Assembly (NCBI RefSeq): GCF_006345805.1
Contig: NC_043012.1
Span: 33,480,001 to 33,544,000, forward strand
Length of the DNA stretch: 64,000 bases
Direction: 5' to 3'
Source: Octopus sinensis
Lineage: Eukaryota
The notes under the pieces were generated by a model that did not search any database, was not told where the DNA came from, and was given only the letters and a program-made list of their open reading frames with translations. This document shows positions 16,713 through 56,961 of this stretch, piece by piece (position 1 is the stretch's first letter; every line of letters starts with the position of its first letter). The position numbers were made by a program, and so were the translations under genes.

Positions 16713-17323
16713 TATATAAGAAAAAGGGACAGGCAAAACAGGTTGCTTGACCGCATACCGAAAAAATAGAAATAGCAGTCAAGAATGCTTATTTCTATCA
16801 AAGTTGGACTCCGGGCATGACAAACCCTGCAATTCACATATGCAAAACAGAAGGAATAGATAACGAATACGAAGTCTGGCGCATGGCAAAATTTTGGAGG
16901 GAAGATTTACGAATTCAAACGTCTATGTAGGTTTAGCTTTTGCTCACTTTCTTCAAATATTTTGATGTCGCATGGTCAGAAGGTTTGAGGTACGTAGCAT
17001 TTGATAAATCTATGATAAATCTTTTTCAATGGAAAGCTGTGCTGAAGAAGGATGTGAAATATATATGCAATGTATATGAAATATATATCAAAAATATATA
17101 TGGAATATATATTCAATATGTTTATAATCCAGAAACATGATGTTCACAGATAACCGCCAGACTTCGTATTCGTTATCTATCCCTTCTGTTTTGCATATGT
17201 GAATTGCAGGGTTTGTCATGCCCGGAGTCCAACTTTGATAGAAATAAGCATTCTTGACTGCTATTTCTATTTTTTCGGTATGCGGTCAAGCAACCTGTTT
17301 TGCCTGTCCCTTTTTCTTATATA
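16713..17323 (+). mobile_element. Fold-back element with 169-bp inverted arms and an internal hammerhead motif (Penelope-like, non-autonomous)
   Basis: 16713-16881 is the reverse complement of 17155-17323 (1 mismatch seen); TA-rich flanks. Confidence 0.75.
17037..17149 (+). ncRNA. Type I hammerhead ribozyme-like motif with long stem II loop
   Basis: ctgtg CTGAAGA a ggat...atcc a GAAA cat-g-atg TT cacag; stem I ctgtg/cacag. Confidence 0.65.
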
Positions 17324-17330
17324 TATAAGA

Positions 17331-17563
17331 AAGGCGGCGAGCTGGCAGAAACGTTAACGCGCAGGGCGAAATGCTTAGCGGTATTTCGTCTGTCGTTACG
17401 TTATAAGTTCGAATTCCGCCGAGGTTGACTTTGTCTTTCATCCTTTCGGGGTCGATAAATAAAGTACCAGTTTCGCACTGGGGTCGATGTAATCGACTTA
17501 ATCCCTTTGTCTGTCCTTGTTTGTCCCCTCTATGTTTAGCCCCTTGTGGGTAGTAAAGAAATA
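17331..17563 (+). mobile_element. SINE family B monomer with Tx1-type tail
   Basis: Full head, core and tail ending ccccttgtgggtagtaaagaaata, followed by (TA)n. Confidence 0.9.
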
Positions 17564-18238
17564 TATATATATATATATATATATATATATATATATATAT
17601 ATATATATATAATATATATATATATATATATATATATATATATATATATATGTATGTATAATATATCTATATATATATATATATAATATATATATATATT
17701 ATATATAAAACACCCAAATTTTAGTAATTTCTTTTATGATCCAAAACTAGGTCAAAAGTACTGAATGGATCTATATGAAATTTGGAAATTATATTCTAAG
17801 CATAAGGGCCATAACCTCCATGACAATTCATATATTTTTGCTGTTGATGAAATTTTAACCATAAATGAAGTAATATTTATAAAATTTCATCTTCTTACAA
17901 AGTTAGAAAGACCCCTCCATGGTGACTTAACACCCACAATTTTGTCATTTTATCTAAGCAAAAACGAATACAGTTGTGCCCTTGGAAGCTGTAGGATTAC
18001 CCGAGCATAAAAGTTGGGCATTATTTCTAATTCAATGGTACAACAATGTAACAGTTTGCTTTGACATACACTTAGATTGTGATTTCTGCAATGTGGTGCA
18101 TAAATTGTTAAGTAAATGAGAGGCATCTTTGTCTCCACTGATTCAGTTGCAAAGTGTTGAGTAAAGTTATTTGATTGCAGACCCCTTTCAGTCTTTTTAT
18201 TATCACTCGGTCACACATAGTCGCCTTTTTATATATAT

Positions 18239-18338
18239 NNNNNNNNNNNNNNNNNNNNNNNNNNNNNNNNNNNNNNNNNNNNNNNNNNNNNNNNNNNNNN
18301 NNNNNNNNNNNNNNNNNNNNNNNNNNNNNNNNNNNNNN
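18239..18338. other. Assembly gap
   Basis: 100 N. Confidence 1.
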
Positions 18339-18549
18339 AACAGGTGTGCAAATTTGCAGCTCAATCAGACCATATATGCACACATTATATATGTGCAACG
18401 CATTAAAATATATATATTTACATATATACACATTATATATATATATATATATATATATATATATATATATATAGATATATATATAATATATATATATATA
18501 TATATGTGTGTGTGTGTGTGTGTGTGTGTGTGTGTGTGTGTATATATAT

Positions 18550-18700
18550 TGTTTTTCTGTGTATCTTTCTGTCGAAGAGCGTAAGCTCGAAACGTAAAAG
18601 ACTTGTTTTATTTCTATTCCTGACGCCATACTAATACATTTGTTTGTTTGTACTCCACCTGCCTTCGTCTTTTGTTCATTTTCGTAAACCTTCCCGTTAT
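18550..18700 (+). mobile_element. Short (TA)n-embedded element with minimal hammerhead-like motif (18564-18601)
   Basis: tcttt CTGTCGA a gagc-gtaa-gctc GAAA c GTA aaaga (one core substitution); its 3' part resembles 13180-13262. Confidence 0.6.
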
Positions 18701-54062: not shown

Positions 54063-54107
54063 TAAATATATTTATAAACACAGTCCCTTCTAAGAATTTC
54101 CCCGCTT

Positions 54108-54269
54108 CTTCTGATGAGGATATCGTGACTCTGCTGCCCGGAGCAACATAAATTTGTGTTAGCGGGATACTTTTCCTTTACCACTACATCTACCAACAAC
54201 ACTGATGCAGTATTGGGCTTCCTTGGCTAATAGACACCTAGATATTGATTATTCGAAACAGCTGTGAAG
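54108..54269 (+). ncRNA. Degenerate hammerhead-like motif with ~130-nt stem II insert
   Basis: ctt CTGATGA ggata...tattc GAAA cagct GTG aag; palindromic stem III but a non-cleavable GUG triplet. Confidence 0.45.
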
Positions 54270-55430
54270 CTAAGATTTGATTACCTCATGTAGACTGTGT
54301 AGGCAACATTTCGTGTAAATACATTCCTGATGCCTGTTACTGTTTGTTTTTCTATTTCGTGCTCTCCCTCTTTCTCCTTCTCTCTCTCTCTCCCCCCTCT
54401 CTCTCTCTCTCTCTCTCTATCTATCTATCTATCTATCTATCTATCTATCTATTTATATATATATATATATATATATATATATATACTAGGAAATTTATGT
54501 GTGTGTACATATACATACACACAATTGATGCGTGTATATATATATATATATATATAATATAATATATATATAATATATTATATATATATATAGATCTAGA
54601 TAGATAGATAGAAGAGATAGAGATATTATATAATAGATATATATAGATATATATATATAGACATACATACACATTTATACATAGGCATAACATTCTCTCT
54701 CTCCCTTTATATATATTATATTATAATATAATATATATATATATATAATACACACATATATATACATATATATATACATATATATACATACATATATATA
54801 TACACACGCATTATGTTTTGTTGGGCGTTTTGTGTGTTTTGCATGTATATAATATTATATATATTATATAATATATATACGCATGCATCCATACATCTTA
54901 TACCTAAACAGTTATCTAACTTCTTCTGTGCCTTAAAGTAATTTTTTTAACGATCACAATCATTCATGAAAGTCAGCTGATGCCTTTCCTTGGCTGCTGT
55001 TGTCTCTAAAACATTTCTTTGGCTCTTAAACTTTTTTTTACTTTTTCCTCGGAAATACGCAGATGCTCACGCACACAGGCATACACACACACACAGAGAC
55101 ATACACAACCTTACAATATATGTATATATATATATATATATATATATATATATATATATATATATATGTAAAGTTTAAAACATGAAAACACAAAGAGAAA
55201 ACACCACGCGAGGGACTTGGAACAAGTTAGTGTTATTGGACGCTGATAGGAAGAAGGAAGGATATATATATATACATATAATATATATATATATATATAT
55301 ACATACTATATATATAGATATATATATATATATATATAATATATATATATTCATATATATATAGTATATATATATATATATATATATAGATTATATATAT
55401 ATATATATACATATATACATATATATATAT

Positions 55431-55832
55431 ATATCTATATTGTATAAAGGGCATTATTACACATAAATGCTCACACTAGGAGGGACAAAGTCATTATACC
55501 AAAAATTATACTAATCATACCCAAATGCAGTTTTTCAAAGCAAGACATTAAAAATGAATTATGTTCTGTATCACCGTGATTTAACATACAACTTCTAATG
55601 ATCGTCAGCAGAACTGATTCTGAATCAGAACTGATTCAGAATCAGTTCTGCTGACGATCATTAGACGCAAGTTGTATGTGAAATCACGGTGATACAGAAC
55701 ATAATTCATTTTTAAATGTCTTGCTTTGAAAAACTGCATTTGGGTATGATTAGTATAATTTTTGGTAGTAATGACTTTGTCCTCCTAGTGTGAGGCATTT
55801 ATGTGTAATAATGCCCTTTATAATATAGATAT
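55431..55832. repeat. ~400-bp near-perfect palindrome (2-nt loop at ~55629-55630) in (TA)n
   Basis: The arms are reverse complements apart from a few indels and substitutions. Confidence 0.95.
55645..55700 (+). ncRNA. Type I hammerhead ribozyme-like motif (mirror copy 55563-55614 on minus)
   Basis: gttctg CTGACGA t cat...atg t GAAA tcac-g-gtg ATA cagaac; 6-bp stem I and 5-bp stem III. Confidence 0.75.
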
Positions 55833-56275
55833 AATTAATTTGTTCAAAAGAAAAAAATATTTTCGGATTCTTTTTTTATGAGGTTTTCACGCTAGCTACC
55901 CGATAATTTCTTGTTAAGATCCCTTATTAAGAGATTATCCTTATTGTTAAACTTATATATATATATATTATATATTATATATGTATATATATATGCATGT
56001 GTAAGTGGCTATGCGTGTGTGAGTGTGAGTGCGTGTGTATTTCTAAATATATAATAATTTATGGTTATGTATGTATGTATGCATAAACGGATGATGGAGG
56101 CACAGAGTTGTTGAGCAGAGAAGTTATTTAGACCTAATAAGAAAGTAACTAAATCGCTATATGAGAATACATTTATATAGACGCAAATTAATATAATGCA
56201 TGTATTATATATATATATATATATATATATATATATATTATATAATTATATATATATATAATATATATATATATA

Positions 56276-56961
56276 GTCAGTAAAAAAGGGGTAGAATTAA
56301 TTAATTGTTAATCAATTCGACCAAGCAGTATTCGGTATGTAAAAAAGACCGTTTACGGTATATTTGAAGTATTAATTTATAAAAATATGGTAAAGTAAAA
56401 AAATTCACTTTACCACACACCGAACTTTTCAGAAATAGCAGCCAAAAATTTGGCTATTTCTTCAACTGCAAATTGATTAACAATTCATTAATTCTACCCC
56501 TTTTTTACTGACAATATAATGCTTTCTCTCCAAGAATTTGAACTACAGCTTTTGCCTCTGTAGGAATGTACTACTCTATGACTCACGTGGGTGGACAGGG
56601 AGAATAATAGATCTCATTTGTATTTTTGGATTCGCTGGTACTGGGTGTCTGGCATGGTTTGTCCGATGTTACAGATATCGGACGGGTCTTTGATTCTTAG
56701 TATTTTCAAATCTAAATCAGAAGAAAAATCTCTGAGCTGATGAAGGAAAAGTGGCGTTAACCCACGAATCCAGAAACAGGCTGTCCTCGGGTATCTTATA
56801 TGGATGTGATTTTCATTGTTTTTTCCTTATACCTATGTGAGTTATTTCTGAGTATGCATTTGCAGTTGAAGAAATAGCCAAATTTTTGGCTGCTATTTCT
56901 GAAAAAGTTCGGTGTGTGGTAAAGTGAATTTTTTTACTTTACCATATTTTATAAATTAATA
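56276..56961 (+). mobile_element. Hammerhead-containing element with two interleaved inverted duplications, in (TA)n
   Basis: IR1 56276-56317/56471-56512; IR2 56370-56473/56858-56961; motif 56732-56790 ctgag CTGATGA a gga..tcc a GAAA cag-g-ct GTC ctcgg. Confidence 0.75.

Follow-up and report, generated by a model that had tools for sequence, protein, structure and literature searches.

Type I hammerhead elements beside TA repeats and a rearranged hammerhead motif in a Naiad remnant of Octopus sinensis

The hammerheads published for Penelope-like elements (PLEs) have several traits in common, namely the type I order, a short stem I, an extra base after position 9 and a palindromic stem III. 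The pair G10.1-C11.1 is present in most of them, many families occur per genome, and the copies are mostly solo, with some pairs on opposite strands (Cervera 2014). Here, a stretch of 64,000 nucleotides (nt) from Octopus sinensis was analyzed (NC_043012.1, positions 33,480,001 to 33,544,000 of the forward strand), which is called the window throughout, and in which a reading of the sequence alone had noticed about 12 type I hammerhead-like folds. At least five sequence families of short hammerhead-bearing insertions beside TA repeats were found in it. In addition, the window contains the 3′ remnant of a PLE of the Naiad clade with a hammerhead-like motif of rearranged block order.

In comparison with the published type I hammerheads, families A, D and F of the window have palindromes of 6–11 nt, their stem II is flanked by one extra base at either side, hairpins in stem II reach a length of up to 83 nt, and no parent open reading frame (ORF) was found in the frames searched. 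Craig 2021, Frangieh 2024, Li 2026, Cervera 2020 and Eckert 2023 are cited in the following from excerpts of their texts and supplements. Such flanking bases at stem II are also present in hammerheads of Hydra-clade PLEs (Craig 2021, PMC8557442, File S2), whose palindromic stem III of 4 bp around a 1-nt centre resembles the long palindromes of the window, and a (TA)n preference is tabulated for two families of that clade. However, Hydra-clade elements bear ORFs and have a short stem II, and the likeness is structural. Non-LTR (long terminal repeat) retrozymes are also short, ORF-less units with type I hammerheads, for which a derivation from PLEs has been proposed and monomers occur (Cervera 2020, PMC7229834; Li 2026, bioRxiv 10.64898/2026.07.22.740005). 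They form tandem units and yield circular RNA in coral, mussel and axolotl, whereas dispersed monomers and inverted pairs in (TA)n are found in the window. Poseidon_Ac (Frangieh 2024, PMC11167929) has in common with the window elements that a structured region with two end points lies downstream of the hammerhead, that some copies have a tail and that the targets are AT-rich. In contrast to them, it is autonomous, its ORF starts inside the hammerhead, its start site is AC-rich, and its tails comprise 30–40 nt, whereas the window elements have TA-rich start regions and tails of about 90–120 nt.

The type I part largely fits the known biology of PLE hammerheads (Cervera 2014; Li 2026). The family of dispersed and closed units without an ORF, which shows two-ended insertions, varies this theme modestly and is apparently undescribed for octopus. 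The diversity of motifs, for which the sequence-only reading knew of no description in cephalopods, has already been published for an animal genome, but no description for octopus was found in the literature searched. Cephalopods are absent from the text excerpts of Cervera 2020 and Li 2026, and 235 Hammerhead_1 hits have been reported for the giant squid.

Hammerhead folds and sequence families

The window has a GC content of 38% and is rich in microsatellites. It was scanned for type I hammerheads with a perfect CUGAnGA and GAAA, U-H and a stem I of at least 4 bp, and this strict scan yielded 7 sites, every one of which belongs to the 12 folds noticed before. All 12 folds turned out to be present. 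Seven have a perfect type I core and all three stems, three carry one core change (18569+, A6>U; 39194-, U4>C; 55608-, G12>U), and two are degenerate. In the degenerate motif at 54111+, position 17 is a G, stem I is out of register, and the 137-nt stem II insert folds no better than shuffled sequences, while at 31668- stem I has only 2 bp and the palindrome is absent.

The seven strict sites were compared with dinucleotide-shuffled windows, which had means of 0.43–0.51 sites (maximum 4; 500 shuffles, three block sizes), or of 0.12–0.17 (maximum 2) with a loop III of at most 3 nt. The reversed and the complemented window contained one site each. The fold was completed at 7 of the 33 CUGAnGA sites, but at only 1 of 191 sites with decoy heptamers. 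The hammerhead folds are thus real and far above chance. Furthermore, three features that lie beyond the scan criteria were observed. In all motifs except 19515 and 31668, i.e., in 10 of 12, stem III forms a palindrome or departs from one by a single base. Closed single hairpins are predicted for the long inserts in stem II at 17042 (z −4.0) and 37673 (z −4.5), with 0 of 200 shuffles in either case, whereas folding was weaker for four further inserts (z −0.75 to −2.3). A TA run begins 93–210 nt 3′ of the predicted cut at 11 of the 12 sites, compared with a background of 30% of 3000 random positions with a run within 250 nt. The hammerhead pair 55608/55651 represents a single event. Stem I is changed on both sides between A1 and A3 and between B1 and B2, as read from these few sequences, without statistics. 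The observation of the sequence-only reading was confirmed, and its interpretation is partly supported.

The families differ in size. Family A comprises the motifs at 17042, 37673 and 56737, of which A2 and A3 are about 75% alike and A1 is more distant. Family B, with a minimal hammerhead and a 4-nt palindrome, is represented by six copies with ragged 5′ ends and a common 3′ end, i.e., the motifs at 18569, 27777 and 39194 and three fragments without core. One of these fragments (13192–13275, forward strand) lies outside the region 16713–56961. Family F is one inverted pair, and C, D and E are single copies. D1 was tried as a further member of family A, but it was kept out because the alignment of the 3′ regions of A1, A2, A3 and D1, with a shortened stretch of A2, gave no consensus structure. 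The motif of family B had no match in viral contigs and none in metagenome contigs. Six plus five short motifs of families A–F had no relevant match in the Naiad, Chlamys and Hydra consensi of the Craig 2021 supplement, a weak test because the printed lines break every 70 letters, and Naiads as the parent of families A–F are therefore unsupported by it.

Insertion anatomy and origin of the type I elements

Head-to-head inverted pairs are present at three loci, A1 (16625–17332), F (55430–55953) and A3 (56276–56961), and TA-rich DNA lies outside of them. At each locus one arm ends at an AT-rich site, and the other arm extends about 90–120 nt further, which is called the tail. The two arms are very similar; 16713–16881 of A1 is the reverse complement of 17155–17323 with 99.4% identity over 169 nt, and 55430–55833 is a 94% inverted repeat. 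An inverted truncated copy and a one-sided tail are PLE traits (Craig 2021, PMC8557442), and the enzyme of Poseidon_Ac nicks and extends both strands and uses two internal start sites, the tail being the stretch between them (Frangieh 2024, PMC11167929). A hammerhead near the element end and an inverted 5′-truncated copy with a tail at one end are thus found in A1, F and A3. This anatomy, which the sequence-only reading had not described, supports its proposal of a link to Penelope elements.

The 3′ region and tail of family A are predicted to fold strongly (z −7.2 for A3 and −4.3 for A1), and a long-range stem encloses the first end site. Between A1 and A3, 6 of the 28 predicted pairs of this domain are changed on both sides, a comparison of two sequences only. 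The respective region of element F folds more weakly (z −2.1). At the junction of the F arms (55609–55650), a self-complementary 17-nt unit is present about twice, and the two cDNAs may have annealed there.

The forward arm of A3 (C3 at 56737, predicted cut after 56785) contains nearly one complete unit of about 543 nt. It starts with the end of the tail and continues directly into the 5′ region. The public assembled contigs of 4 of the 24 listed runs were compared with 56474–56965, and a 31-letter rule was used for bridging. This comparison covers the listed entries, beyond which there are 78 loose ends and 727 pieces, and contig depths do not equal copy numbers. The contig cover is deep in 28–29 of 29 bins and stems from many divergent contigs. 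One listed contig of entry X1 (56476–56548, 7 differences) spans the join of tail and 5′ region by the 31-letter rule. Loose ends of entries X12 and X16 before 56498 match the tail end, those behind 56961 match the tail start, and among the listed loose ends an alternative upstream sequence at the join was not seen. A single low-depth joint was reported; otherwise, there were neither joints nor end pile-ups. None of the differences listed for the four runs is in the CUGAUGA or GAAAC core. Variation occurs in loop II, at 56780, which is the unpaired middle of the palindrome in stem III, and at position 17 (56785), where the change C>T leaves a valid base. These results suggest that the family at 56737 is a high-copy unit that is closed head to tail at about 543–545 nt. 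Such a unit would have no room for a PLE ORF and would therefore be non-autonomous. Pfam yielded nothing at E<0.007 in 30 frames around five elements, and in 12 ORFs it found domains of reverse transcriptase (RT) only of the type of long interspersed nuclear elements (LINEs). A GIY-YIG-like antisense reading upstream of A3, which seemed possible by eye, was rejected because Pfam gave no support.

Taken together, we consider it likely that the short type I hammerhead insertions are copied into TA repeats by the RT and the endonuclease of a PLE acting in trans. The enzyme would nick both strands of a TA tract. The structured 3′ domain would hold two internal AU-rich start sites, and each 3′ end would prime cDNA synthesis at one or the other of them. 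The stretch between these sites would correspond to the tail, and the two cDNAs would be joined head to head. A religated circle or an uncleaved multimer would have served as the template of A3, because the A3 forward arm is intact across the predicted cut and across the join of tail and 5′ region. Monomers are predicted to arise from precursors through hammerhead cleavage, for which the ribozyme would mostly dimerize via its palindromic stem III or be helped by proteins. The majority of the genomic copies are decaying.

Several points weigh against this mechanism. Published minimal PLE hammerheads cleave poorly alone (including those of Frangieh 2024, PMC11167929), and 8 of 9 Xenopus dimers failed to cleave (Li 2026). 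The start site of Poseidon_Ac is AC-rich and not homologous to the target (Frangieh 2024), and for this reason annealing to (TA)n is something that we only infer. Five of the 12 motifs are damaged, and the four-sequence alignment including D1 lacks a consensus structure. No PLE ORF (RT and GIY-YIG) was found in the 30 flank frames or the 12 ORFs, a search of parts of the window that may miss short remnants. The contig check covers A3 in 4 of the 24 listed runs, strict bridging was seen for a single listed contig only, and contigs collapse repeats.

An alternative is that all copies are 5′-truncated ends of autonomous PLEs, i.e., pieces of their pseudo-LTRs (pLTRs), and that the closure of A3 stems from partial tandems or contig collapse. 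Solo hammerheads are interpreted in this way by default in Cervera 2014, the ragged 5′ and common 3′ ends of the six family B copies agree with it, and the contig check concerns A3 alone. On the other hand, the A3 tail runs directly into the 5′ region, not only in the window but also in other copies, and the flanks of the five elements are without a protein family match. As an explanation of all copies it is therefore unlikely. Nevertheless, families B–F may be plain truncated PLE ends, and a short closed ORF-less unit has moderate support for A3 only. The claim of several non-autonomous families has support for the family at 56737 only, and the others may be truncated ends of autonomous PLEs.

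Still less probable is an origin as solo offspring of classical tandem-array non-LTR retrozymes whose expression yields circular RNAs in abundance. With about 545 nt, the closed unit is within the range of 51–972 bp of Li 2026, who also report many monomers, and mussel retrozymes are known. However, no tandem hammerhead-bearing repeat is among 145 rows of Tandem Repeats Finder (TRF) output, and 184-nt and 70-nt tandems of the window sit elsewhere. Moreover, the inverted arms and tails indicate integration of the PLE type, and the cores are not the canonical kind of the coral arrays. As the window contains no tandem hammerhead array, the retrozyme definition of Li 2026 does not apply locally, and the term retrozyme, which the sequence-only reading had used, is not appropriate in its defined sense of tandem units with a hammerhead each. 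This origin differs from copying by a PLE in trans mainly in the location of the master copies. Lastly, an explanation of the motifs as chance folds in AT-rich repetitive DNA could point to the degenerate sites 54111 and 31668, the weak stems II and III at 19515 and the lack of hammerheads in Rfam among 150 of 209 listed window matches and in two local scans, which gave only microsatellite and hairpin noise, but its probability is negligible, because the shuffle and decoy comparisons refute it for the set and palindromes, hairpin inserts and TA adjacency arose though the scan never required them; it may still apply to 31668.

The type I elements represent a cephalopod case of the known link between hammerheads and PLEs. 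Short ORF-less PLE parasites, which are not called by Rfam here, may form a sizeable share of octopus repeats. The two-ended insertions lend natural support to internal two-site priming, which has so far been described only in vitro and for one lizard element.

Hammerhead block order in the Naiad remnant

Naiads have been reported to lack canonical hammerheads, and only "core" or "half core" notes are given for them (Craig 2021, PMC8557442). They have a (TA)n preference, which they share with the window elements. In the remnant at 42208–42301, a CUGAUGA at 42290, which was absent from the list of the sequence-only reading, is part of a fold with the block order site, GAAA, CUGAUGA. The outer helix X is formed by 42208–42212 and 42297–42301 and is followed by a hairpin, stem II (42228–42233/42257–42262) and stem III (42244–42248/42266–42270). 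Position 17 is at 42249, stem I is formed by 42250–42254 and 42285–42289, GAAA is at 42263, and CUGAUGA occupies 42290–42296. The bases before GAAA pair in 6 of 6 positions with the upstream strand 42228–42233, which starts with a G, and those after CUGAUGA pair in 5 of 5 positions with the strand upstream of the small hairpin. Stem I has 5 bp, and stem III has 4 of 5 pairs, the mismatch being at the core-adjacent pair 15.2/16.2. A reading of the motif as an ordinary type II or type III hammerhead fails because the partners of stems I and III sit upstream of GAAA.

A scan for the block order gave 1 hit compared with a shuffle mean of 0.17, which is weak alone. The full descriptor, which was written after seeing 42208–42301 and the published examples, had 1 hit in the window and none in 500 shuffles, and without helix X and the hairpin it was found in 3 of 500 shuffles. 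By eye and without an alignment score, the remnant resembles the 3′ ends of Naiad_Ovul and Naiad_Obim in the Craig 2021 supplement. All these helices were recognized by eye in 8 published Naiad consensi of five lineages (File S5), i.e., two of Octopus, three near-identical ones of Acropora and three others, one of which has a stem I of only 2 bp. The Naiad of Euprymna fits for stems I and III only, and two other consensi of File S5 have the ordinary block order. The consensi were found by term searches that miss line-broken and variant cores, and they are a subset of 54 ends. The stem sequences are wholly different between lineages that share the layout.

The closest described counterpart is the type-SGC hammerhead, which has been validated and occurs together with hairpin-ribozyme contigs in metatranscriptomes (Eckert 2023, PMC10085705). 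Both have stems I and III and share the block order site, GAAA, CUGAnGA, and the linker between stem I and stem II is similar in length, about 3 nt in type-SGC and 1–5 nt in Naiads. However, in type-SGC stem II is assumed to follow directly after CUGAnGA (Eckert 2023), whereas in the Naiad motif the CUGAUGA is followed by the separate helix X and the G10.1 strand comes from upstream. Naiad, Octopus, Acropora and Metazoa are unmentioned in the excerpts of the text and supplement of Eckert 2023. The rearranged order of Naiads was not found in the literature searched, nor was a paper that joins them with the type-SGC order, subscription journals being outside its coverage. The topology is the most novel lead of the analysis.

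We tentatively propose a joint interpretation, which we regard as quite possible although somewhat short of probable. Naiad PLEs would carry a predicted self-cleaving hammerhead of undescribed topology, with an SGC-like order, a CUGAUGA that is split from stem II and a G10.1 strand that is supplied from upstream via a junction of a helix and a hairpin. Alongside this, circular PLE parasites without an ORF would be abundant in octopus genomes and would use an internal template loop to prime on (TA)n. Compared with the type I elements, the Naiad motif is of greater importance. If it cleaves, a very abundant clade of invertebrate retrotransposons has a ribozyme after all, animal genomes contain non-circularly permuted hammerheads, and a split is possible in one of the three blocks that were assumed to be unbreakable.

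Features of the window

Table 1. Hammerhead-bearing elements, related fragments and the Naiad remnant, in window positions
Feature	Coordinates	Strand	Remarks
A1 inverted arm	16625..16881	-	copy of 3′ region 16713-16881 and ~90-nt tail; left edge approximate
A1 forward arm	16882..17332	+	type I hammerhead 17037-17149, C3 17042, predicted cut after 17144, 83-nt stem II hairpin
B1, family B subfamily	18545..18697	+	minimal hammerhead 18564-18601, A6>U
C1 hammerhead	19481..19522	-	perfect core, 7-bp stem I, weak stem II, non-palindromic stem III; directly in (TG)n
B2	27743..27896	+	intact minimal hammerhead 27773-27807, 4-nt palindromic stem III; (TA)n end
X1, degenerate hammerhead-like core	31630..31675	-	stem II good, stems I and III broken; no TA run nearby
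A2, family A	37393..37856	-	hammerhead 37598-37678, C3 37673, 54-nt stem II hairpin; upstream edge set where similarity to A3 ends
Family B 3′ fragment without hammerhead	38955..39015	+	tail-to-tail with B3 across TA run
B3	39056..39250	-	86% to B2; hammerhead 39164-39198, U4>C
Naiad PLE 3′ remnant	42208..42301	+	hammerhead blocks in non-circular order; decayed copy
D1, hammerhead to TA run	47650..47856	-	hammerhead 47798-47856, C3 47851, 11-nt near-palindromic stem III
E1, degenerate hammerhead	54104..54272	+	perfect 8-nt palindrome, no valid position 17, 137-nt stem II insert
Family B 3′ fragment	55168..55262	-	starts just past hammerhead position
F1, left arm of F	55430..55614	-	hammerhead 55563-55614, G12>U; (TA)n end, no tail
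F2, right arm of F	55645..55953	+	intact hammerhead 55645-55700; ~120-nt tail 55834-55953, then (TA)n
A3 inverted arm	56276..56473	-	3′ region and 94-nt tail 56276-56369
A3 forward arm	56471..56961	+	tail end, 5′ region, intact hammerhead 56731-56791, 3′ region, (TA)n

Several other repeats are present in the window. On the reverse strand, 8299–11685 and 12112–12648 contain an open LINE ORF2 of 1128 amino acids (endonuclease, RT and zf-RVT) and a possible upstream piece of ORF1, and this element looks young. A broken RT-bearing LINE (RVT_1), which we take to be RTE-like, is located at 13253–15968 on the forward strand. Broken non-LTR elements of another type, presumably R4/Dong-like, lie on the reverse strand at 22444–24113, 31900–32250 and 32348–34287, with a weak RVT_1 match at 32351–32794. 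The degenerate motif X1 of Table 1 is situated downstream of one of these elements, near an (ATT)n run. The frame at 5826–6404 on the reverse strand, for which Pfam had no match at E 0.001, resembles what we assume to be a fragment of a Tc1/mariner transposase.

A repeat like a short interspersed nuclear element (SINE) is found at 1159–1645, 28691–29058, 44244–44608 and 61549–61920, with 184-nt tandem units and many solo copies, one of which adjoins element A1 at 17332. A GC-rich array of 70-nt tandem units (4302–4854, 7.9 copies) contains no hammerhead core, and a short interstitial (TTAGGG)n-like tract is located at 51579–51628.

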